A DNA stretch of 64,000 nucleotides from Escherichia coli (GTDB taxonomy: Bacteria > Pseudomonadota > Gammaproteobacteria > Enterobacterales > Enterobacteriaceae), in assembly GCF_022846255.1 (NCBI RefSeq), contig NZ_AP025682.1, one strand, 5' to 3'. Below are positions 7,173 through 53,401 of the stretch, one piece after another. The notes beneath the pieces are model-generated. The model had not been told where the DNA came from. It saw only the letters and a list, made by a program, of their open reading frames with translations, and made no database searches. The position numbers and the translations under genes were made by a program. Each line of letters opens with the position of its first letter. The stretch's first letter is position 1.

Positions 7173-7346
7173 TTAGTGGTTATTCGCTGCCAGATCGGCT
7201 TCGCTTAGCTGAGTGGCCGCGAGCACCTGATCACGATCAATGCCCTGCTCCAGCATGCGCAAAGCAATTTTAATGGCTTGTTCATGCATGCCTTCCTGCC
7301 AGCCAATTTGATGTCCTTCCTGCCGTAGCCGTTCAGCAATAGTCAT
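7173..7346 (-). CDS. ypaA: Small Rpn C-terminal-domain-only protein (RpnE/YpaA-like), 57 aa
   Basis: Hand-translated: [57 protein letters not shown]; paralogous to the last ~75 aa of the adjacent yfaD product; same SD-containing sequence attaatctctcctttt precedes it; below the 60-aa ORF-track cutoff. Confidence 0.6.
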   Translation of the reverse strand: MTIAERLRQEGHQIGWQEGMHEQAIKIALRMLEQGIDRDQVLAATQLSEADLAANNH

Positions 7347-7358
7347 TAATCTCTCCTT

Positions 7359-8318
7359 TTAATGACCGTTCGGAATATCAGCATCAGTGAGTTGGGTTGT
7401 CGCCAGCACAATCTCACGTTCAAAGCCCTGTTCCAGCATGCGCAAGGCAATTTTAATGGCTTGTTCATGCATACCTTCTACTTTGCCTTTCTGCAAACCC
7501 TCCAATTTCCCCTCCTGCCAGCCTTCTAATTTACCTTCCTGCCAGCCAATTTGATGTCCTTCCTGCCGCAGCCGTTCAGCAATAGTCATTAATCTCTCCT
7601 TTTGTAGTGGTGAACGTTCGGCAATCTCCTCAATAAAACGGGTGAAACGGGAGGTATCGCCGCATTGCAGCAGATAATTAAACAGCGTTTGTAGCTGGCT
7701 GTCATTAGTGAAGCCTCTAACCAAAAGCGTGGTAATCCTGTCGACCATACCGATTAAATCGCGGTCGCGAATATGCTTTTGAATCAGTTCCAGCAGAGCT
7801 ATACGCCGATGTTGCATGATCTCATCGTCAGGTACGATGGTGATATCCACCAACGGAAAAGCTTCGGTGTACAACTGCCGGGCAAGTTGCGGATCGTCAA
7901 ACTCATCCAGCCAGTTGAGTGAGTACGGGTAGGGCGAGGTTTCGCCATGATAAAACAGCAATGGTACCACCAGCGGAACTCTGTCATAGCCTTTATCCAG
8001 GTGACGTTGCATGGCGGCAGTGGCATAGCGCATTAGTCGAAAAGCCATATTCTTTTCTGCAGAACTTTGATGTTCAATCACGCAGTAGATATAGCCGTCA
8101 CCGTCGCTGGTTTCCACCGACCACAAAACATCCGAGTAGTAAGCGCGTAAACTTTTTTCAATAAAGCTGGTGGGTTCCAGGCGTAAGGTTTGCAGGTTGC
8201 AAAGCTTGCGCAGCGGCTCTGGCAGATGTATTTCGAGAAAATCTCGCGCCGTATCGGGCGAGAACATAAAGGTTTTAAATACCGCATCATGCGGGGAGGA
8301 GGTTGTTGATTCGGTCAT
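7359..8318 (-). CDS. yfaD: Recombination-promoting nuclease RpnB (PD-(D/E)XK, transposase_31/YhgA-like family), 319 aa
   Basis: N-terminus [17 protein letters not shown] typical of Rpn/YhgA family; C-terminal xxEG tetrapeptide repeats. Confidence 0.8.
7473..7544 (-). repeat. In-frame tandem repeat inside yfaD encoding [24 protein letters not shown] (three 24-bp units)
   Basis: Read directly from codons 7473-7544; the ypaA copy has only one WQEG unit. Confidence 0.7.
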
Positions 8319-37598: not shown

Positions 37599-38783
37599 TT
37601 AATTCAACCGTTCAATCACCATCGCAATTCCCTGGCCGCCACCAATGCATAGTGTTGCCAGCCCCAGCGTTTTATCGCGTGCCTGCATGGCATGTAATAG
37701 TGTGACCAGAATACGAGCACCACTGGCACCGATAGGATGCCCGAGCGCGATGGCCCCGCCGTTGACATTCACTTTCTCAGGCTCAAAGCCCAGGGTTTTC
37801 CCAACGGCAAGGAACTGTGCAGCAAATGCTTCATTAGCCTCAATGAGATCAATATCCGCCAGTTGCAGCCCCGCCAGTTGTAACGCTTTTTGCGTGGCAG
37901 GTACTGGCCCCATACCCATCAATGCGGGGGGCACGCCACCGCTGGCATAACTTTTAATGCGAGCCAGGGGGGTAAGGCCTGCTGCCAGCGCCGCAGATTC
38001 TTCCATAATCACCAGAGCGGCAGCACCGTCGTTAATACCAGACGCGTTCCCGGCGGTGACTGTTCCTGCTTTATCGAAGGCCGGGCGCAATGCGCCTAAC
38101 GCTTCAGTCGTAGAATCCGCTTTCGGGAATTCGTCTTGACTGAAGACGAAGGTTTTCTTCCGAGTGACAACATTTACCGGGACGATTTCGGCTGTAAAAG
38201 CACCGGACTCAATTGCGGCAGCCGCTTTACGCTGTGAATGTAGCGCCAGTTCATCCTGCATTTCTCGGGTAATTCCGTACTCTTTGGCCACGTTCTCGGC
38301 GGTAATCCCCATATGATAACCATGGGTGGCGCACATCAGACCATCGCGCAGGATTACGTCATAAACCTGTCCGTCTCCAAGACGATAACCAGAGCGTGCT
38401 TTTGCATCGAGTAAGTAGGGCGCTAAACTCATATTTTCCATACCCCCCGCCACAATGCTTTGCGCCTGACCTGCCTGAATTGCCTGGGCGGCAAGCGCCA
38501 CACTTTTAAGACCCGAACCACACACTTTATTGACCGTGAATCCGCACACCGTTTCTGCCAGCCCGCTTTTTAACAGTGCCTGACGTGCCGGATTTTGCCC
38601 CAACCCGGCTTGCAACACGTTACCCATAATCACTTCATCAATGTGTAGTGAATCGATTTTTGCACGTTCAATGGCGGCTTTAATTACTGTCGCCCCCAGG
38701 TCGATGGCGCTGGTGGACGCGAGTGAACCGTTAAAACTACCGATAGCAGTACGTACCGCACTGACGATGACACAATTTTTCAT
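37599..38783 (-). CDS. atoB: Acetyl-CoA acetyltransferase (thiolase II), 394 aa
   Basis: Protein recognised. Confidence 0.9.
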
Positions 38784-38813: not shown

Positions 38814-40136
38814 TCAGAACAGCGTTAAACCAATGACGAAAATGACGCCGGAGAAGAGCAGGGCAGTGATGCAATAGCCCATGATGTCGCGGACACCGAG
38901 TCCGGCGATTGCCAGTGCTGGCAGCGCCCAGAATGGTTGTGCCATGTTCATCCATTGCTCGCCGTAGGCGATCGCCATTACCGATTTACCGAGATCAGCG
39001 CCCAGCGCCTGGGCTGCGGGTATCACGAAAGGTCCCTGAATAACCCAGTGACCGCCGCCAGACGGAACGGCGAAGTTAATCAGTGCAGAACTAAAAAAGG
39101 TCATTACCGGGAAGGTGTCTTTGTTCGCAACATTGATGAAGAATTCGGTAATGAGTCCGCCCAGACCGGAATGCTCCATCATCAGTTGGATCCCAGCGTA
39201 GAAGGGGAATTGCACCAGAATACCGGCAGTACTGCGTGCTGCCGCGCTGATAGCACGCATATAAGCCATTGGCGTTTTATGTAGCAGCAGACCCGCAATC
39301 ATAAACATCAGGTTGACGGTATTGATGGTGATGTTGAAGCCATGTTCGCTGAAGTACATCGCAAGGTAAGCGATACCGAGTGCGCCGATGATCAACGTCA
39401 GAATGCGGCTTTCTTCCAGTCGCTCGGATGGTGGGGCATCTTTCGGTAGCTGCTTTTGAAAATCAGCCTCTTCCATGAGTAGTTTCGGATCGATACTCAC
39501 CACGTCAGACGGTTTTGGCATCATCATGCGGGTGATAAATGGCATCACCACAATCAACGCCACAGTGATGAAAATATTAAAACCACTGAACAGAGTATCG
39601 CCCACCGGGATCAGCCCGGCGATATGCTCAACCGGGTTGCCCGGTGTTGCAGCCAACAGAGGCATTGAGCCAGAGAAACCGCCACCCCAGGTGAGAAAAC
39701 CAATGTAGGCGCAGGCAATGAGCAACGGATAATCAGAACCGGGTACTCGCCGGGCGACTTCACGGGCGAACATTGCACCGACAACCAAACCAAATCCCCA
39801 GTTGATGACACAAGCGACTGAACCGAAGAAAGTAACCAGCATGACGCCCTGTACGGGCGTCTTTGCGGCGGAGGCGGCAGTACGCAGCAAACTTTTCACC
39901 GGAGCGGAGCTGGCAAGGGCATGACCGGTAACGATGATAAGCGCCATCTGCATACCAAACGCCAGCAAGTTCCAGAAACCGTCACCCCACATTTTCACCA
40001 TGCTGATCGGCGTTTGTGGTGTTAACCAAAGCGCGATCACGAATGTTAGCAATGTCAGCAACATGGCAAAGATCAGTGGATCGGGAAGCCACCGGCTGAC
40101 AAAACGCGTCATAAAACGCGATATGCGACCAATCAT
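38814..40136 (-). CDS. atoE: Short-chain fatty acid transporter, 440 aa
   Basis: Protein recognised. Confidence 0.85.
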   Translation of the reverse strand: MIGRISRFMTRFVSRWLPDPLIFAMLLTLLTFVIALWLTPQTPISMVKMWGDGFWNLLAFGMQMALIIVTGHALASSAPVKSLLRTAASAAKTPVQGVMLVTFFGSVACVINWGFGLVVGAMFAREVARRVPGSDYPLLIACAYIGFLTWGGGFSGSMPLLAATPGNPVEHIAGLIPVGDTLFSGFNIFITVALIVVMPFITRMMMPKPSDVVSIDPKLLMEEADFQKQLPKDAPPSERLEESRILTLIIGALGIAYLAMYFSEHGFNITINTVNLMFMIAGLLLHKTPMAYMRAISAAARSTAGILVQFPFYAGIQLMMEHSGLGGLITEFFINVANKDTFPVMTFFSSALINFAVPSGGGHWVIQGPFVIPAAQALGADLGKSVMAIAYGEQWMNMAQPFWALPALAIAGLGVRDIMGYCITALLFSGVIFVIGLTLF

Positions 40137-40783
40137 AAATCACCCCGTTGCGTATTCAGATCGGCAGCGACTTCAAACCGAGCTTCTGTTTTGGCACGCA
40201 CGGTGGCTAAATCACACCCGTCGGCAATTTCGGTGAGCCACATTTTGCCGTCAATAAAACGAAAGACAGCCAGTTCAGTAACCAGCATATGCACCGCATG
40301 TTGCGCAGTGAGTGGCATGGTGCAGCGGCGCAAAATTTTTGCTGAACCATCTTTGGCGCAATGTTCCATGGCGATGATCACTTTGCGCGACCCGGTCACC
40401 AGATCCATCGCGCCACCCATACCGGGCACCATTTTCCCAGGCACTACCCAGTTCGCGAGGTTTGCTTCTTCGTCTACTTGCAAACCGCCGAGCACGCAGG
40501 CATCAATATGACCGCCACGGATTAGCGCAAATGACATGGCGCTATCAAACATGGCTGCACCGGGTAAAATGCCGCACGGTTGTCCGCCAGCGTTCACCAG
40601 ATCGGGATGCGCTGTTGTGACCGGGCCTAAACCGAGGAAGCCGTTTTCCGATTGCAGAGTGATATGAATACCCTCCGGTAAATAATTGGCGACCATTGTG
40701 GGTAAACCGATCCCTAAGTTAACGATGTCACCATCACGAAGCTCTTGCGCCACACGGCGCGCAATACGTTGTTTCGCATCCAT
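40133..40783 (-). CDS. atoA: Acetate CoA-transferase beta subunit, 216 aa
   Basis: Protein recognised; 4-bp overlap with atoE. Confidence 0.9.
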   Translation of the reverse strand: MDAKQRIARRVAQELRDGDIVNLGIGLPTMVANYLPEGIHITLQSENGFLGLGPVTTAHPDLVNAGGQPCGILPGAAMFDSAMSFALIRGGHIDACVLGGLQVDEEANLANWVVPGKMVPGMGGAMDLVTGSRKVIIAMEHCAKDGSAKILRRCTMPLTAQHAVHMLVTELAVFRFIDGKMWLTEIADGCDLATVRAKTEARFEVAADLNTQRGDL

Positions 40784-41445
40784 TATTTGCTCTCCTGTGA
40801 AACGATGATGTGGTCGATAACGGCACCAGGGGTGACAATATGGTCAGGTTGCAGCTCGCCGGTTTCGACCAGTTCATCTGGCTCTACCAGCGTGATATCA
40901 GCCGCAAGGGCTATCAGGGGGTTAAAGTTGCGGGCGCTAAGGTGATAGGTCAGGTTGCCAAGTGTGTCGCAACGATGAGCGCGAATTAGCGCCAGGTCGG
41001 CGCGCAGCGGGCGTTCGAGCAGCCAGGTTTTACCGTCGAGTGTCAGTGTCTGTTTGCCTTCCTCTACGACGGTGCCGACACCCGTTGGGGTGAGAAAACC
41101 ACCAAGTCCAGCTCCGCCACAGCGAATTTGCTCGATTAGCGTACCTTGCGGCACCAGAACGACGTCCATCTCACCAGATATCATGCGCCGACCTGTTTCC
41201 GGGTTGGTGCCGATATGTGAAGCAATCACTTTGCGGACTCGACCATTGACGATGAGCGGACCGATGCCGGTATCAACAAACGCGGTATCATTGGCTATCA
41301 ATGTCAGGTCGCGAACACCAGATTCCAGTAATGCTTCAACCAGGCGGGATGGAGTGCCAATCCCCATAAATCCGCCCACCATGATGGTCATGCCGTCACG
41401 AAAGAAGCCGGTGGCGTCTTGTAATGTCATCAATTTTGTTTTCAT
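40783..41445 (-). CDS. atoD: Acetate CoA-transferase alpha subunit, 220 aa
   Basis: Protein recognised; 1-bp overlap with atoA. Confidence 0.9.
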
Positions 41446-41490
41446 TTTTTATCCCTCTTGCATACACCGTTGTGGGTACAGTCAGGGAAT

Positions 41491-41506
41491 AGCAAGGGGA
41501 GTGCCA
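41491..41506 (-). promoter_or_regulatory. Sigma-54 promoter of atoDAEB (-24/-12)
   Basis: Minus strand reads TGGCAC-TCCCC-TTGCT, matching TGGCAC-N5-TTGCW, ~45 bp upstream of the atoD ATG. Confidence 0.75.
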
Positions 41507-41588
41507 GAATGAGATTATTGGGGGGTGTTATTTAACTAATTGAATAAAAAAGGATAAATTAGATGGGGGTTTATAAGGAGAATGAGCG

Positions 41589-41629
41589 GCTATGCAGAAA
41601 ATTGCGCACTGTGCAAATTTCTGCATAGC
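41589..41629. promoter_or_regulatory. AtoC upstream activating sequence (inverted 20-bp repeats)
   Basis: gctatgcagaaaattgcgca-c-tgtgcaaatttctgcatagc, near-perfect palindrome ~100 bp upstream of the sigma-54 element. Confidence 0.75.
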
Positions 41630-41640
41630 AAGTTTTGGCG

Positions 41641-41819
41641 TTATACATCCGCCGGATCGATACCGTATTCCTGGAGTTTATACATCAATGCACGGCGACT
41701 GATGCCCAGCATTAATGCAGTGCGGGTTCGGTTTCCTTCTTGTTGTTCCAGCACTTCCATAATGATGCGTTTTTCGACGCGTTTAATTTCCTCTTTTAAA
41801 TTACGCTCACCGACAGGGG
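41641..41819 (-). pseudogene. atoC: atoC 3' fragment (C-terminal HTH domain) separated from the rest of the gene by IS4
   Basis: Hand-translated in frame with the 5' part across the TSD: ...PVGERNLKEEIKRVEKRIIMEVLEQQEGNRTRTALMLGISRRALMYKLQEYGIDPADV*. Confidence 0.85.
41808..41819. repeat. IS4 target-site duplication, left copy (CACCGACAGGGG)
   Basis: Identical 12-mer directly flanks the other IS4 end at 43246-43257. Confidence 0.9.
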
Positions 41820-43245
41820 TAATGCCAGTCAGTTAAGCAACTGACTGGCTCTTTTTCGGGGCTGTGGGGTATTTCCAGGGCCTCTCCTTTACCACTCTCG
41901 GGAAGGCCCTTTCCCTTCTTGTCGGTAATTTCACAAGTTGTCCCATACTTGCAAGATCGCGCATCAGCTCCGGTATACGTCCCGGTGAAGCGCCCTGCAA
42001 TGTCATCAGCATTCTCATCACCATTCCACATGATTCTGAGAAACTCAGTTGATTCGGCCAGTAACCTTTCAGATGTTCCGCCATTTTAATCATCTGATAT
42101 CTCACCAGATTATAAGCCAGTAAGACACCCCACAGCTCTTGCTCCACAAGCTCCGGTTTTTTACTTCTCAGCGTCAGCCTGCTCAGTTGCATCGTCTGTT
42201 TTATCTCCCTGTATCCCAGTTCGATTTCCCAGCGATGACTGTACAGATCCGCCATTTCTCCTCCGGGGAAGCGCATGGCGTCCGTCATCGACGTCAGCAG
42301 ATGGCAGACTTTTCCTTTGCGCGTCACGGTCAGCAGGCGGGCTGTCACTTCATTTCCCAGTCCCGGCCACTTTTTTCGTGCCTGCGGGCTGGTTTTCAGC
42401 TTCACCAGATGATCGCCTTTACCCAGTTTTCTGATCTCTTCATATTGCGCTCCCTTTCTGAGAGGTATCATCCAGTGGCGGTGTTCTCCCGCCAGGCTCC
42501 AGGCATTTAACAGTCCCAGTGAGTAATAACCTTTATCCATTAACGTCAGAGTGTTATCGCCGGTTTGTTCTATAAGTTGCTCAGCAAGCTCATTTTCGCT
42601 GTTCTTCATCGTGCCGAAGGCTGCAGCCGTCAGCAGATGGCTGGTCAGTTCCATCTGGCAGACCATTTTGACCTGCGGGTAGAGCGCCGGGTTCCCGGCA
42701 TGTGTCTGGCGGGGGAAGGCTGCATCGTTCTCTGGTGTATCCGGTGTGCGCCAGAACACACCATCGATGGCCAGCAGGGTCAGGCCGCACCAGTGCGGAT
42801 GCGGCGTGGCGTTATGCCAGAGCTGCGCTGTTTTCGTGAACACGCGGCGGACAGCCTCACTTCCCAGGCGCTGGCGGGCCTGAATAACGGCACTGGGGGC
42901 AACGAAGGGGCGATTGCCCGGCAGCATGATGTCCAGGCGATTCACAATCTGGTGAAGAGGTTCTTTACGCTCAAGCGCCATGCCAACAATACACCAGACC
43001 ATCATTTCGAGGGGAAGACGGCGCTTGCGTAGCGTTACAGTACCTGATTCGGCAAGGCAACGAGAGATGAGTTCGGGGTCGAGGTAATCCCCCAGAGAAG
43101 TCAGTGGGTTACGCAGAGAATCGTAACGGGATACCAGATCAAGAGCCTGTCCAATGTGCATAAAAAAATCCGGAAACAAGTGAGCGTTTCCGGATTCTTA
43201 CACAGCCACTGGATCGGTCAACTGATCCTTAACTGATCGGCATTA
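41820..43245 (-). mobile_element. IS4 insertion sequence, complete (1426 bp)
   Basis: Terminal inverted repeats TAATGCCAGTCAGTTAAG / TAATGCCGATCAGTTAAG (16/18 match); 1426 bp between them; single 442-aa IS4-family transposase; flanked by 12-bp direct repeat. Confidence 0.9.
41833..43161 (-). CDS. insG: IS4 transposase InsG, 442 aa
   Basis: Starts [16 protein letters not shown]; the ORF-track 448-aa version begins 6 codons upstream. Confidence 0.9.
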
Positions 43246-44464
43246 CACCGACAGGGGCTGTTTTTGCCTCACCAGCATTACAGACTGGCTGACGAATCTG
43301 CGGCGGAAGATCCTCAGAGAAAATGATCGGGCCTGAGTTCATCACGACGGCGCGTTCAATGACGTTGGAAAGCTCTCGAATATTACCCGGCCATGACCAG
43401 GCGGTAAGCAGCGACATTGCCATCGGATCGATGTCGATAATATCGCGCTGATTCTCACTACTGAATTTTTGCAAAAAGTGATTAGCTAACAGGGAAATAT
43501 CTTCCCGGCGATCGCGCAGAGGCGGCAGTATTAAATGAATAACGTTAAGGCGATAAAAGAGATCTTCACGGAAGGTGCCTTCTTTCACCATTGCCTGCAA
43601 GTCGCGGTTGGTGGCAGCAATGATGCGGATATCAACTTTTATGGTCTGATGACCGCCAATCCGTTCAAATTCCCGTTCCTGCAGAATGCGTAGTAATTTG
43701 GCTTGCAGTACCAGCGGCATTTCGCCAATTTCGTCGAGGAGCAGAGTACCTTCGTTGGCACGTTCAAATAATCCCTGACGTAAGGTTTGTGCACCAGTAA
43801 ATGCGCCTTTTTCATGACCAAACAGTTCACTTTCGAGCAACGATTCCGGCAGCGCCGCGCAGTTGACTTTAATGAACGGCCCCTTTGCCCTCCGCGAATT
43901 GTAGTGAATCGCTCTGGCAATCAACTCTTTCCCGGTGCCGCTTTCACCGCTAATCAAGACGCTGGCCTGAGAAAGGGCAATTTTGGCGGTGTCTTTGCAG
44001 ATGTCCATCATCGCCGGGCTGTTGGTGAGAATGTGCCCCCATTGCCAGCTGGTGCTCAGTGCCTGGTGCAGATGACGGATCTCTTTTTTCATTGACTGGA
44101 GTTGTAAAGCGCGCTGAACGATTAAATTCAACTCATCGAGATCAAACGGTTTGATAACATAGTCGAAGGCTCCGCAGCGTAGTGCTTCGACGGCGGTTTC
44201 CACTTCAGCATAGGCCGTCATCAGAATAACGGGTGTCCGGGTCTCATGGCTGCGCATCTCCTTGAGTGCCTTGATGCCGTCCATCTCTGGCATGCGGATA
44301 TCCATCAACACCACGTCAGGGTGAATATCGGCAAACAGGTGTAATGCTGTGCGCCCGTTGTTCGCACAATGTGTTTCGAATCCTTGTAGTGCAAAAGCGG
44401 TGCTCAGCATACGGCGAACATTATCTTCATCATCCACAATAAGGATGCGATTAATAGCAGTCAT
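43229..44464 (-). pseudogene. atoC: atoC 5' part: receiver plus sigma-54 AAA+ domains, truncated by IS4 (406 native codons + VMPIS from the IS end)
   Basis: ORF of 411 aa ends 17 nt inside the IS4 terminal repeat; GESGTGKE Walker A and GAFTGA motif present; HTH absent. Confidence 0.85.
43246..43257. repeat. IS4 target-site duplication, right copy (CACCGACAGGGG)
   Basis: Identical to 41808-41819. Confidence 0.9.
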
Positions 44465-46287
44465 ACAGTCTGATTTCCCTGCGGGTTGATCGGTAAAATA
44501 AGCGTGAAGGTTGCGCCGTAGCCCGGCAAACTGGCGACGCGAATATCACCCTGATGGGCATTAATGATGCGTTGACTTAACGCCAGACCAAGCCCGGTTC
44601 CTGAGGCTTTGGTAGTGAAAAAGGGATCGAAGATCTTTTTTTGCAGCGAGAGATCAATGCCACTGCCGTTGTCCTCTATCGAAATGGCCTGTTGTGAGTC
44701 GCTATACTGCCAGGTTCGAATGCGAATTTTCCCTCGTGCACTGATAGCCTGGACGGCATTGATCAGGATATTCAGTAGTACCTGTTTGAGCAGTTCACGA
44801 TCGGCGTTAATCGGGCTTAATTCATTATCCAGTTCGCTTATGAAGTCGACCCGCGCTTGTACGCCGGCGGTTTGTACCAGTACCAGAGTTTCTTCAACCA
44901 ATGCATTGAGGCTGACTTGTTGCCATTGACTGTGGCGTGGACGTGAAAATTCGAGCAATTGCTGAATAACTTTGTTAATTGAATCGATTTCTTTGAGTAC
45001 TACGGACAGATATTCCTGATGTATTGGGTCACGGGTTTGTTGGCGCAAGATCTGTACATAACCACGAATAGCTGTTAGCGGATTACGTAATTCATGCGCC
45101 ACGCCAGCCATCAGCTCACCCAGTGTGGCGAGGCGTTCTGCTTGCGCCATGCGGCGCTGGGTTTCTTTGCGGGCAGTTAAATCAGAGAAAATCACCAAAG
45201 CACCTATCATTTCACCGTGCGTGTTATGAATACGACTGGTCGTGACACTGAGTTCAATGGTGCGGTCACGGCCTGGAAAACTGATCTCCAGTGCTACATG
45301 TTCGGTGCCATGTTCCAGCGTATCCAGTACTGGACTGTAGAACTGAGTATTGTCGAACAACATGGAGTAAGGCTGCCCTACCAGTTCATGACGTTGATAG
45401 CCAGTGATGACTTCTGCTGCTGGGTTCATGGTGGTTACATCACCCTGGCGGTCAATGGCAATGACGCCATCGGCAGCGTTTTCAATAATCAGATCGTTAA
45501 GTGTTCGCGTTTCACGCAGTGCCTGGGCGAGGTTGTTAACACTCTGACTGATTTGCCCCATTTCACCGGGCAATTGTGGTAATCGAGTGGGAATATTTTG
45601 TGCCAGAGTCGAGAGGCCATCGGTGATGATATCTATATTGGCGCTCAGGCGACGGGAGAAAAGGACAATCAACAGCAGGCTTATCAGCAAACCGGCGGTG
45701 AGCACAATGATAATCCTCACATCCATTTTCCAGGCCTGGCGGCGAATATCTTCGGTTAATTCATTGGCCCAGATATAGCCGAGGATTTCACCATTACGCT
45801 CAATGGGAATCATTGAATTCAAAATATCGCCGCGCACCTGCCTGCCTGAATAAACCAAAGGGGTATTTGTACGCATGACTTCGCGACCAGGGTGATCTGC
45901 GGCAATGGTAACGCCCACATTATTCTGATATAGCGCTGAAGGCGCGTAGGTGATTATCGCATCCAGCGTTTTGTTGTAATAACCAGCGCCGATGCCAGGG
46001 AAGGCGTGAGTGATATTTTCGGTAATGGGGGCAAGTTCTGCATTTAATGCGCGGATATGCTCCTCACGCGGTAAGTCGATGTAGAGATCGTAGCGATTGC
46101 CTAGCGCCTGATTAAGCAGGTTGACCACGGCAGAAAGTTTTTTCTCTTTTTCAGATAAGACTGCTGAACGTCCTTCCGTTTCTACGATATAACCAATAGT
46201 AAGCGTTGGGACAATGACCATCAGGATTGCCATCAGGATCATTTGATTGCGTAAGCGGCGTGGATAAATCCACTTCATATAATGCAT
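44461..46287 (-). CDS. atoS: Sensor histidine kinase AtoS, 608 aa
   Basis: Starts [15 protein letters not shown]; ATGA overlap with atoC start. Confidence 0.9.
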
Positions 46288-46453: not shown

Positions 46454-49303
46454 TTGAAATACCTTGCTTCTTTTCGTACAACCCTGAAAGCCTCGCGCTA
46501 CATGTTCAGAGCATTGGCGTTAGTGCTCTGGCTGTTGATTGCTTTTTCATCCGTTTTTTACATCGTTAATGCGTTACATCAGCGAGAATCGGAAATTCGT
46601 CAGGAATTTAATCTGAGTTCCGATCAGGCTCAGCGCTTTATTCAACGCACCTCTGATGTGATGAAAGAGCTGAAGTACATAGCTGAAAATCGCTTATCGG
46701 CAGAAAACGGTGTGCTTTCCCCGCGTGGACGAGAAACGCAGACGGATGTGCCTGCGTTTGAACCGCTGTTTGCTGACTCTGATTGTTCCGCAATGAGTAA
46801 CACCTGGCGAGGTTCTCTGGAGTCATTGGCGTGGTTTATGCGCTACTGGCGCGATAATTTTTCTGCGGCTTACGATCTAAACCGGGTATTTTTAATCGGC
46901 AGCGATAACCTCTGCATGGCTAATTTCGGTCTGCGTGATATGCCAGTGGAACGCGATACCGCGTTAAAAGCTTTGCATGAACGCATTAATAAATATCGAA
47001 ATGCACCACAAGATGATAGTGGCAGTAACCTCTACTGGATCAGCGAAGGTCCGCGCCCTGGCGTCGGGTATTTTTACGCCTTGACGCCAGTTTATCTGGC
47101 GAACCGGTTGCAGGCGCTTTTGGGTGTCGAGCAAACCATCCGGATGGAGAACTTTTTCTTACCTGGTACGTTGCCGATGGGGGTTACCATTCTTGATGAA
47201 AATGGTCATACCCTGATTTCGCTTACCGGACCAGAAAGCAAAATTAAGGGCGATCCTCGCTGGATGCAGGAACGCTCCTGGTTTGGCTATACGGAAGGGT
47301 TCCGGGAGCTGGTGCTGAAGAAAAATCTGCCACCCTCATCGCTAAGCATCGTGTATTCGGTGCCGGTTGATAAGGTGCTGGAACGCATTCGCATGTTGAT
47401 CCTTAACGCAATTTTGCTGAATGTGCTTGCCGGAGCTGCATTGTTTACTCTCGCGCGGATGTACGAGCGGCGTATTTTCATTCCGGCGGAAAGCGACGCC
47501 TTGCGACTGGAAGAACATGAGCAGTTTAATCGCAAGATTGTCGCCTCCGCGCCAGTGGGTATCTGCATTTTGCGTACCGCTGATGGCGTCAATATTTTAA
47601 GTAACGAACTGGCGCATACCTATCTCAATATGCTTACGCATGAGGATCGCCAACGGCTGACACAAATTATCTGTGGGCAGCAGGTCAATTTTGTTGATGT
47701 CCTGACCAGCAACAATACCAATCTGCAAATCAGCTTCGTCCATTCGCGCTATCGTAATGAAAACGTGGCCATTTGTGTGCTTGTGGATGTTTCTTCGCGC
47801 GTGAAGATGGAAGAGTCGTTGCAGGAGATGGCACAAGCAGCGGAACAGGCGAGTCAGTCAAAATCGATGTTCCTTGCCACCGTCAGTCATGAGCTGCGAA
47901 CGCCGCTGTATGGCATTATCGGTAACCTGGATCTGTTGCAAACCAAAGAGTTACCGAAAGGCGTCGATCGTCTGGTGACGGCAATGAACAACTCTTCCAG
48001 CCTGTTGTTGAAAATTATCAGCGATATTCTCGATTTCTCGAAGATTGAATCGGAACAGTTGAAGATCGAACCGCGTGAGTTTTCACCGCGTGAAGTGATG
48101 AACCACATCACCGCCAACTATTTACCGCTGGTGGTACGCAAGCAGTTAGGCTTGTACTGCTTTATTGAACCGGATGTGCCAGTGGCCTTAAATGGCGACC
48201 CGATGCGTTTACAGCAGGTCATCTCCAACCTGTTGAGTAACGCCATAAAATTCACCGATACCGGCTGTATAGTTTTGCATGTTCGCGCTGATGGCGATTA
48301 TCTCTCTATCCGTGTTCGCGATACCGGCGTGGGGATTCCGGCGAAAGAAGTCGTGCGCTTGTTTGATCCCTTCTTCCAGGTCGGAACGGGCGTACAGCGA
48401 AACTTCCAGGGGACCGGTCTGGGTCTGGCGATTTGTGAAAAACTGATCAGCATGATGGACGGCGATATCTCGGTAGATTCAGAACCGGGAATGGGCAGCC
48501 AGTTTACCGTGCGTATTCCGTTGTACGGCGCTCAGTACCCGCAGAAAAAAGGCGTGGAAGGGTTGAGTGGTAAACGCTGCTGGCTGGCGGTCCGCAATGC
48601 GTCGCTCTGTCAGTTCCTGGAAACCAGTTTGCAGCGCAGCGGCATCGTCGTTACAACATACGAAGGGCAGGAACCGACTCCCGAAGATGTGTTAATCACT
48701 GACGAGGTAGTGAGCAAAAAATGGCAGGGTAGAGCGGTAGTGACCTTCTGTCGTCGCCATATTGGTATTCCGCTGGAGAAAGCGCCAGGGGAGTGGGTAC
48801 ACAGTGTGGCTGCCCCGCATGAGCTACCGGCATTGTTGGCGCGTATTTATTTGATCGAGATGGAGAGCGATGATCCTGCTAACGCTCTGCCGTCGACGGA
48901 CAAAGCGGTCAGCGATAACGACGATATGATGATTCTGGTCGTGGATGATCATCCGATTAACCGGCGTCTTCTGGCAGATCAGTTGGGATCGTTGGGCTAT
49001 CAATGTAAAACCGCGAATGATGGCGTCGATGCGCTTAATGTACTTAGCAAGAATCATATTGATATCGTGCTTAGCGACGTCAACATGCCAAATATGGATG
49101 GTTACCGCTTGACGCAACGCATTCGTCAGTTGGGACTGACGTTGCCGGTTATCGGAGTAACTGCTAATGCGTTGGCTGAAGAGAAGCAGCGGTGTCTGGA
49201 GTCCGGTATGGACAGCTGCCTGTCGAAGCCGGTAACGCTGGATGTGATAAAACAGACGCTAACGGTATATGCCGAGAGGGTCAGGAAATCGCGGGATTCG
49301 TAG
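46454..49303 (+). CDS. rcsC: Hybrid sensor kinase RcsC, 949 aa (TTG start) or 933 aa from ATG 46502
   Basis: HisKA/HATPase plus C-terminal receiver; the ORF-track start is TTG. Confidence 0.9.
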   Translation: MKYLASFRTTLKASRYMFRALALVLWLLIAFSSVFYIVNALHQRESEIRQEFNLSSDQAQRFIQRTSDVMKELKYIAENRLSAENGVLSPRGRETQTDVPAFEPLFADSDCSAMSNTWRGSLESLAWFMRYWRDNFSAAYDLNRVFLIGSDNLCMANFGLRDMPVERDTALKALHERINKYRNAPQDDSGSNLYWISEGPRPGVGYFYALTPVYLANRLQALLGVEQTIRMENFFLPGTLPMGVTILDENGHTLISLTGPESKIKGDPRWMQERSWFGYTEGFRELVLKKNLPPSSLSIVYSVPVDKVLERIRMLILNAILLNVLAGAALFTLARMYERRIFIPAESDALRLEEHEQFNRKIVASAPVGICILRTADGVNILSNELAHTYLNMLTHEDRQRLTQIICGQQVNFVDVLTSNNTNLQISFVHSRYRNENVAICVLVDVSSRVKMEESLQEMAQAAEQASQSKSMFLATVSHELRTPLYGIIGNLDLLQTKELPKGVDRLVTAMNNSSSLLLKIISDILDFSKIESEQLKIEPREFSPREVMNHITANYLPLVVRKQLGLYCFIEPDVPVALNGDPMRLQQVISNLLSNAIKFTDTGCIVLHVRADGDYLSIRVRDTGVGIPAKEVVRLFDPFFQVGTGVQRNFQGTGLGLAICEKLISMMDGDISVDSEPGMGSQFTVRIPLYGAQYPQKKGVEGLSGKRCWLAVRNASLCQFLETSLQRSGIVVTTYEGQEPTPEDVLITDEVVSKKWQGRAVVTFCRRHIGIPLEKAPGEWVHSVAAPHELPALLARIYLIEMESDDPANALPSTDKAVSDNDDMMILVVDDHPINRRLLADQLGSLGYQCKTANDGVDALNVLSKNHIDIVLSDVNMPNMDGYRLTQRIRQLGLTLPVIGVTANALAEEKQRCLESGMDSCLSKPVTLDVIKQTLTVYAERVRKSRDS

Positions 49304-49497
49304 GACGGATAAGGCGTTTACGCCGCATCTGGCATTCAGTGCAAATGCCAGATGCGACGCTGACGTGTCTTATCTGGCCTACTTTAATGTAATCTGTTGA
49401 AATAATGGGAATCGTAGGACGGATAAGGCGTTTACGCCGCATCCGGCAATCGGTGCAAATGCCAGATAAGACACTAACGCGTCTTATCTGGCCTACA
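49304..49497. repeat. REP/BIME cluster between convergent rcsC and rcsB
   Basis: Two copies of cgtaggacggataaggcgtttacgccgcatc (about 49297 and 49412) plus inverted partners ending cttatctggcctac. Confidence 0.8.
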
Positions 49498-53153: not shown

Positions 53154-53246
53154 AAAAAAAACCGGATGCGAGGCATCCGGTTGAAATAGGGGTAAACAGA
53201 CATTCAGAAATGAATGACGGTAATAAATAAAGTTAATGATGATAGC
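53154..53246 (-). ncRNA. micF: MicF antisense sRNA (93 nt), repressor of ompF translation
   Basis: Minus strand reads GCTATCATCATTAACTTTATTTATTACCGTCATTCATTTCTGAATGTCTGTTTACCCCTATTTCAACCGGATGCCTCGCATCCGGTTTTTTTT, ending in a hairpin plus U8 terminator; divergent from ompC. Confidence 0.9.
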
Positions 53247-53401
53247 GGGAGATATTCTAGTTGCGAGTGAAGGTTTTGTTTTGACATTCAGTGCTGTCAA
53301 ATACTTAAGAATAAGTTATTGATTTTAACCTTGAATTATTATTGCTTGATGTTAGGTGCTTATTTCGCCATTCCGCAATAATCTTAAAAAGTTCCCTTAT
53401 A

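Follow-up and report, generated by a model that had tools for sequence, protein, structure and literature searches.

IS4 is reported, in work attributed to Klaer and Starlinger and to Mayaux in 1984, to have inserted repeatedly at one position of the galT gene, in both orientations, and an AAA-N20-TTT target was reportedly proposed. The insertion described here, in the atoC gene of Escherichia coli, resembles the galT case in that one exact nucleotide is reused in both orientations. The element is the same as in the galT case and the IS4 subgroup, with a length of 1,426 bp, terminal repeats matching at 16 of 18 positions and duplications of roughly one helical turn, 11–14 bp, and the target has an A-rich arm on one side and, less clearly, a T-rich arm on the other. 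The atoC site differs, however, in its place within atoC and in matching the consensus well in one arm only. The IS4 subgroup has been credited with a "spectacular apparent insertion specificity" (PMC2266710).

The atoDAEB operon is sigma-54-dependent (PMC3118216), and deletion of atoSC abolishes short-chain fatty acid catabolism (PMC3118216). Two 20-bp AtoC sites verified by ChIP, GCTATGCAGAAATTTGCACA and GCTATGCAGAAAATTGCGCA, are situated at −184 to −165 and −163 to −144 of atoD (PMC3118216, Table 5). AtoC has also been reported as an inhibitor, or antizyme, of ornithine decarboxylase (PMC3118216, PMC1784093). The antizyme role is disputed. Laboratory atoC and atoSC nulls of E. coli K-12 are similar to the present locus in that the sigma-54 activator is lost and atoDAEB is intact but uninducible, the latter being a prediction here. 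In contrast to those nulls, the present allele is natural and removes the HTH alone, with the receiver and AAA+ regions kept.

Enhancer-binding proteins that have no DNA-binding domain, as is the case for the truncated AtoC, include Helicobacter FlgR and the engineered DctD250. CtcC of Chlamydia also consists of a receiver and an AAA+ region without a DNA-binding domain, a likeness that is one of architecture only. These proteins evolved in this form or were over-expressed, whereas the loss in AtoC appears accidental and recent and concerns a promoter that is enhancer-dependent. Expressed from a plasmid, an AAA+ core that lacks the DNA-binding domain can activate sigma-54 transcription from solution with lower efficiency (PMC3844500). 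A further parallel is the IS pseudogenisation of catabolic loci in E. coli and Shigella, where, as here, an IS with its duplication disables an accessory regulator, and atoS lesions follow in some of the lineages that carry the insertion. But unlike in the usual IS pseudogenisation, the position of the atoC insertion is non-random and is reused to the nucleotide.

The IS4 insertion in atoC

The window is the whole stretch of DNA analyzed here, 64,000 nucleotides of E. coli sequence. The ato genes in it are found in the K-12 order, atoS, atoC, atoD, atoA, atoE and atoB, all on the minus strand, and atoC is interrupted by a complete IS4. The features of the insertion are as follows.

41820–43245, minus strand: complete IS4, 1,426 bp, 100% identity to annotated IS4 (insG) copies
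41833–43161, minus strand: IS4 transposase gene, 442 aa (Pfam Nterm_IS4, 3e-33, and DDE_Tnp_1, 9e-32)
41808–41819, no strand assigned: target-site duplication, copy 1, CACCGACAGGGG
43246–43257, no strand assigned: target-site duplication, copy 2, CACCGACAGGGG
43229–44464, minus strand: truncated atoC open reading frame, 411 aa, AtoC positions 1–406 followed by VMPIS (translation, Pfam domains)
41641–41819, minus strand: atoC 3′ remnant, 179 bp, 58 codons and a stop, with a Fis-type HTH (HTH_8, E-value = 4.4e-16)

The identity of the element extends over its full length, and many E. coli genomes have such IS4/insG-annotated copies. The 18-bp terminal inverted repeats, TAATGCCGATCAGTTAAG and TAATGCCAGTCAGTTAAG, are imperfect and match at 16 of 18 positions. 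The transposase gene has the orientation of atoC and of atoDAEB. The insertion point is at atoC codon 406/407, and the 12-bp target duplication on its two sides is perfect. When IS4 and one copy of the duplication are deleted in silico, the result is a 7,251-bp atoS-atoB block that has the K-12 length and is exactly colinear with K-12. This reconstructed block shows 119 SNPs relative to K-12 (1.6%) with all open reading frames remaining open, and V400A is the sole difference between the reconstructed AtoC and K-12 AtoC. Because the IS4 copy is pristine, the duplication perfect and the flanks without lesions, the insertion is judged from its sequence to be recent. An assembly artefact was considered and rejected, as the two copies of the duplication agree fully and independent assemblies, two of them (L006 and L009) 100% identical to the window, show this structure too.

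The allele takes the last 55 AtoC residues, which carry the HTH, off the protein and leaves a receiver plus AAA+ product whose VMPIS tail is read from the IS4 terminal repeat. By Pfam, Response_reg (5e-32), Sigma54_activat (1e-75) and AAA_lid_14 are all kept in the 411-aa product, and its translation shows D55, Walker A, GAFTGA and Walker B. Pfam finds no HTH in this product; HTH_8 is confined to the separate 58-codon remnant past IS4, which is colinear with K-12 atoC codons 404–461 and is off the AtoC polypeptide. The original prediction had placed the HTH on a 179-bp fragment downstream of IS4 and had the truncated AtoC keeping its ATPase domain. Both points are borne out, the first by HTH_8 at 41641–41819 (E-value = 4e-16) and the second by the presence of Sigma54_activat, AAA_lid_14 and the Walker motifs.

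The atoDAEB control region and the truncated activator

The genes and control elements around the insertion are as follows.

44461–46287, minus strand: atoS, sensor kinase, intact, 608 aa
41589–41629, minus strand: AtoC enhancer, two inverted 20-bp half-sites, an exact match to the ChIP-verified sites
41533–41545, minus strand: IHF-like 13-mer ATTCAATTAGTTA, one mismatch to WATCAANNNNTTR, the same in K-12
41491–41506, minus strand: sigma-54 promoter of atoDAEB, TGGCAC-N5-TTGCT, identical in K-12 and SMS-3-5
40783–41445, minus strand: atoD, CoA-transferase alpha subunit, intact, 220 aa, one substitution relative to K-12
40133–40783, minus strand: atoA, CoA-transferase beta subunit, intact, 216 aa, one substitution relative to K-12
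38814–40136, minus strand: atoE, short-chain fatty acid transporter, intact, 440 aa, protein identical to K-12
37599–38783, minus strand: atoB, acetyl-CoA acetyltransferase, intact, 394-aa open reading frame, colinear with K-12, no internal stop

The sigma-54 element reads CTGGCACTCCCCTTGCTA on the minus strand, is identical to that of K-12 MG1655, and displays GG at −24 and GC at −12 with canonical spacing. The enhancer reads GCTATGCAGAAATTTGCACA-G-TGCGCAATTTTCTGCATAGC, extends from −184 to −144 relative to the atoD ATG and is also identical to K-12. The 13-mer may have a role in IHF binding. As the identity to experimentally defined elements is exact, chance matching is not an issue. Relative to K-12, 12 of the 195 intergenic positions are changed; ten of the changes are in the enhancer-promoter spacer, and the enhancer, the IHF-like 13-mer and the −24/−12 element are free of them. 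Ten of the 12 are common to SMS-3-5, whose atoC is intact, and thus represent standing polymorphism and not decay. Decay of the cis-elements was therefore rejected. Rfam and tRNA scans of the window show nothing in the ato region.

The claim that the sigma-54 element and the palindromic AtoC site are undamaged therefore stands, both being identical to K-12 and matching the published sites. That they persist without the HTH of their activator had been put forward as noteworthy, but this is not supported, as the locus is an ordinary young IS knock-out. The cis-elements are undamaged because the insertion is young and there has been no time for decay. Intact cis-elements beside a broken activator are the default for a recent insertion and do not suggest a retained function.

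The observed anatomy of the insertion, its observed recurrence at the same nucleotide and the observed resemblance of the site to other IS4 targets are best explained by a recent loss-of-function allele of atoC, produced when an active IS4 moved by cut-and-paste into a preferred sequence, a reading to which we give a probability of about 0.85. IS4 inserted between codons 406 and 407 and duplicated 12 bp, and the atoC frame now closes within the terminal repeat of IS4, after five codons of it. The resulting receiver plus AAA+ product is probably still phosphorylated by AtoS, but would be unable to dock on the enhancer, which precedes the sigma-54 promoter of atoDAEB by 90–130 bp. With no activator tethered there, the local activator concentration at the closed complex would be too low, and atoDAEB would consequently be uninducible by acetoacetate. 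The strain should thus display an Ato-minus phenotype.

Loss of function may be incomplete, because AAA+ activators without a DNA-binding domain can act from solution (PMC3844500). The truncated AtoC might accordingly be a working protein in a selected state, responsive to AtoS and giving weak sigma-54 activation from solution, or inhibiting ornithine decarboxylase, or both, but this is quite improbable. D55, Walker A/B, GAFTGA and the lid domain are all kept in the 411-aa open reading frame, and the mRNA should be stable, given its stop codon close to a terminator. DctD250, which has no DNA-binding domain, activates heterologous sigma-54 promoters enhancer-free at a level ~10-fold below the cognate activator (PMC3844500), CtcC naturally has no such domain and shows AtoC as its closest E. 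coli relative, with 42% identity (PMC7482065), and the antizyme role of AtoC is on record (PMC3118216, PMC1784093). However, activation from solution needed over-expression or removal of the receiver (PMC3844500). The truncation point is set by the target choice of IS4 and not by a domain boundary, several atoC::IS4 lineages have lost atoS too (Y590* or a frameshift), and the absence of the allele from all 5,426 complete genomes argues that it neither persists nor spreads. Activity of the truncated AtoC from solution or as an ornithine decarboxylase inhibitor, the two combined, would be unlikely. The broader proposal that the recurrent alleles are selected, as a CtcC-like activator controlled by AtoS and/or an ornithine decarboxylase antizyme, or through read-through into atoDAEB, with IS4 as a reusable switch, is given as little credence as a working truncated AtoC.

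In other lineages with the insertion, atoS carries Y590* (four loci) or a 4-bp frameshift. These lesions suggest that the signalling pair is decaying and not being retained. Approximately 28% of complete E. coli genomes are without atoDAEB entirely. The ato locus is dispensable and decays after an IS4 hit. In K-12 laboratory populations, butyrate-adaptive atoC and atoS mutations fell in frequency after butyrate was exhausted, which the authors attribute to a cost (PMC10321620). Since such mutations are costly, silencing of atoDAEB is plausibly neutral or mildly beneficial.

Transcription from IS4 and the detached HTH remnant

The original prediction had also raised the possibility that the HTH fragment is expressed from an outward-reading IS4 promoter. 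The features that bear on this are as follows.

43194–43221, minus strand: promoter-like site of the IS4 transposase, TTGACC-16-TGnAAGAAT (sigma-70 consensus scan)
43164–43199, minus strand: hairpin followed by U7 inside IS4, −18.8 kcal/mol, z = −5.1
41824–41849, no strand assigned: 11-bp hairpin at the transposase-distal end of IS4, terminator-like on the plus strand only, where it is followed by CTCTTTTTC
41641–41760, minus strand: the sole in-frame start-bearing open reading frame in the remnant, 39 aa from AtoC Met423

The transposase promoter-like site is the only sigma-70-like match in 41400–43400. A consensus scan, the only search made for promoters, showed no sigma-70-like promoter on the minus strand from the transposase promoter of IS4 to atoD, and no sigma-70-like match on the minus strand at the operon-facing IS4 end (~41820–41900), where an outward promoter would be situated. 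The hairpin with U7 is found just downstream of the transposase promoter and ends three bases 5′ of the transposase ATG. It should halt read-through coming from atoS and the truncated atoC. The 11-bp hairpin has no U tract on the minus strand and is terminator-like solely towards transcripts that come in from the side of the ato promoter. For this reason weak transposase read-through across the HTH remnant is possible, and no terminator-like site was found on the minus strand from the transposase stop to atoD.

The 39-aa open reading frame spans the whole HTH_8 match and is annotated by gene callers in one public locus (L021). No Shine-Dalgarno sequence is present before Met423 in the upstream sequence AAACGCATCATT-ATG. 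The transposase gene ends in a TAA that shares the reading frame of the atoC remnant and precedes it by 5 codons; this shared frame is treated as a coincidence. The remnant thus appears to be a silent, promoterless leftover. Expression of the HTH from an outward IS4 promoter finds no support, there being no promoter, no Shine-Dalgarno sequence and a predicted terminator in the path of read-through.

It is very improbable that IS4 activates the operon, with transcription leaving the element and driving atoDAEB independently of AtoC and sigma-54 in a bgl-like manner. The transposase is co-directional with atoDAEB, the minus strand is free of terminator-like sites from its stop to atoD, and the hairpin past that stop is without a U tract on this strand. 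Yet there is no sigma-70-like outward promoter, IS transposase promoters are weak in general, and the occurrence of both orientations at one site fits target specificity better than promoter delivery. Butyrate use by way of ato mutations is strongly selected in some conditions, but these mutations are costly once butyrate is gone (PMC10321620).

Production of the stranded HTH as a 39–58-aa peptide, or as a transposase-HTH read-through fusion, that would occupy the enhancer is scarcely credible: the Met423 frame over the whole HTH_8, the in-frame transposase stop 5 codons upstream and the intact palindrome would permit it, but the Met423 start has no Shine-Dalgarno sequence, the remnant itself is without a promoter, a shared frame is expected by chance in one of three cases and here follows from the insertion site, and this strain has no activator with which an isolated HTH could compete.

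Recurrence of the insertion and choice of target

The most telling feature of the allele, which the original prediction had missed, is its recurrence. A look-up by exact sequence found the 411-aa product on 12 public contigs. Two of the 12 (L006 and L009) are identical to the window and the others are approximately 1% different in atoS and atoC. The accessions of the 411-aa protein include two of the STH/STL series and one from DDBJ, all labelled E. coli; by their prefix, the two STH/STL-series entries may be NCTC strains. Three further products were predicted, namely the K-12-type V400 product ending in VMPIS and, for an inverted IS4, either variant ending in VMPVS. All three exist in public data, on at least 24, at least 8 and at least 2 contigs, P0016 being the V400 product of the same orientation and P0017 and P0018 the products of inverted IS4. 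In L031 and L035 the transposase is on the opposite strand, which confirms the inverted IS4. Truncated AtoC for both IS4 orientations is found on at least 46 public contigs, although recurrence was looked up by exact protein, so that these counts are biased and without a denominator. Some of the carrier contigs may be re-sequenced strains or laboratory-evolved K-12.

The junction nucleotide is identical in 27 of 27 retrieved loci. Loci that span IS4 (L003, L021 and L031) show the same 12-bp duplication on both sides, and their sigma-54 and enhancer elements are intact. Over 1,800 nt upstream there are 14 haplotypes, at most 34 SNPs apart, and two of these carry IS4 in both orientations. SNPs among carriers are as near as 16–22 bp to the junction, three loci are 100% identical to K-12 MG1655 over 2.0–2.8 kb upstream, and the inserted IS4 copies differ mutually by 0–6 SNPs. 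The two orientations, the 14 haplotypes, the differing IS4 copies and the K-12-identical flanks argue for many independent events. A conservative count, of haplotype clusters more than 10 SNPs apart multiplied by orientation, implies at least about 10 independent atoC::IS4 insertions.

Despite its recurrence the allele is rare: in either orientation, the insertion is found in 0 of 5,426 complete RefSeq E. coli genomes. The nearest intact loci in these genomes are only 99.2–99.6% identical to the window, so that its lineage is unrepresented in complete RefSeq. A scan of JGI metagenomes for the junction 35-mer gave 0 matches, although a JGI contig (L026) carries the 35-mer; thus the scanned JGI collection differs from the protein index.

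A single ancient insertion spread by homologous recombination would account for the junction and duplication common to all carriers, and E. coli recombination is frequent, but this origin is barely conceivable and was rejected, as it cannot yield both orientations (at times on one haplotype), inserted IS4 copies that are not alike, or flanking SNPs 16–22 bp from the junction, and some flanks are identical to K-12 and no complete genome has the allele.

Independent insertion at one nucleotide raises the question of the target. Ten other IS4 sites in one genome show the layout AAAAAcgg-(12–14 bp)-ccgTTTTT with duplications of 12–14 bp, that is, an A-run, three bases, a partly palindromic duplicated core of 12–14 bp, three bases and a T-run. 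Eight of the ten are intergenic and terminator-like. The atoC target reads gcAAAAAcag-CCCCTGTCGGTG-agcgtaaTTT. Scored with a position weight matrix (PWM) derived from these other sites, the atoC site ranks 8th among window loci and 13th of 250,088 position-length combinations. One half-site, consisting of the A-run arm and the core, ranks 6th of ~62,000 positions, and the other arm is weak. The PWM score of the atoC site, 12.4, is lower than that of all ten training sites (15–34). The duplicated core resembles that of the IS4 site at rpoD-mug, where the BLAST match extends past the element.

In the preferred reading IS4 would pick its targets by sequence, the atoC site mimicking one arm and the core of a terminator-like target, and the identical insertion would for that reason recur in both orientations and in unrelated lineages. 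Sequence-directed targeting is the most economical account of the recurrence. However, sequence preference alone may not explain it, because the second half-site is poor and the score is under those of the training sites, and selection for loss of atoC may contribute. Codon 406/407 of atoC is an apparently undescribed natural hot spot of IS4: atoC is named as an IS4 target in none of the papers searched, and no relevant paper on atoC and IS4 was found.

What the window shows is a naturally occurring atoC knock-out, and no further meaning attaches to the intact promoter and enhancer. The junction provides a marker for finding Ato-minus E. coli with two 30-mers, either CAGCCCCTGTCGGTG and TAATGCCGATCAGTT or CAGCCCCTGTCGGTG and TAATGCCAGTCAGTT. 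Natural strains with a receiver plus AAA+ AtoC that has no DNA-binding domain are material for questions on enhancer-independent activation and on the antizyme. The atoC case shows cleanly, in nature, how the target preference of a single IS makes a specific gene repeatedly mutable species-wide, and it bears on the reading of parallel gene loss as evidence of selection.

The atoDAEB control region

The atoDAEB operon is sigma-54 dependent and under AtoC. Relative to K-12, ten of the 12 intergenic differences in the window fall in the stretch that separates the sigma-54 promoter from the AtoC enhancer, five of them on consecutive bases:
41511-41575, - strand, variable enhancer-promoter spacer (-130 to -66 from atoD)

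This spacer is much more variable than the genes on either side of it in the same comparison, and the AtoC enhancer, an IHF-like 13-mer and the -24/-12 element show no change from K-12.

IS4 and its targets

Two features of the IS4 copy in atoC (41820-43245, - strand) are listed here:
43164-43199, strong hairpin followed by U7, immediately 5′ of the transposase start codon
41833-41835, transposase stop codon, in a frame shared with the atoC HTH remnant in this orientation

The hairpin and U7 probably shield the transposase gene against outside transcription. In GCA_900448835.1, which supplied ten other IS4 sites for comparison (L011-L020), eight of the ten copies are intergenic and lie in sequences made up of an A-run, a palindrome and a T-run, e.g. 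at adhE-tdk, eno, rpoD-mug and degS-mdh. These eight targets look like bidirectional terminators. The remaining two copies break genes, bcsG and a DUF4049 gene.

A metagenome contig, ENA ERZ1303465 (L022:5626-7236), carries the IS4 of atoC followed by an IS4 target from ravA-kup, and the atoC remnant is absent there. The far side of the element displays the ravA-kup duplication CCCCCCTTTGAG and next to it ravA. The presence of this target beyond the IS4 points to one of two things: two IS4 copies have recombined, with an inversion or a deletion as the result, or the metagenome assembly is chimeric.

Other elements in the window

Two RNA features represent K-12-like content, as expected:
53154-53247, MicF sRNA, adjoining ompC
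49303-49493, two naRNA4 (REP325) units, 3′ of rcsC

A 102-nt direct repeat is also found (7194-7295 and 7377-7478, 81% identity, 183 bp apart), which partly overlaps the 3′ end of an open reading frame at 7359-8318 (- strand).

Distribution and state of the ato locus

The ato locus of the window is at most about 99.1-99.6% identical to any complete RefSeq genome. A scan of the JGI metagenome collection with the 35-mer spanning the atoC/IS4 junction gave 0 matches, a collection that differs in its records from the index used for exact look-up of the truncated AtoC protein, which includes the junction-bearing JGI contig 3300015155 (L026).

Among public loci with IS4 at this atoC junction, several carry a second lesion, in atoS: the nonsense change Y590* (nt 1770) is found in L021, L024, L025 and L026, and a 4-bp insertion in L023. 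This suggests that the atoS/atoC two-component pair is decaying after, or alongside, the IS4 insertion. The ato pathway is accessory within E. coli, since atoDAEB is present in only 3,927 of 5,426 complete genomes.
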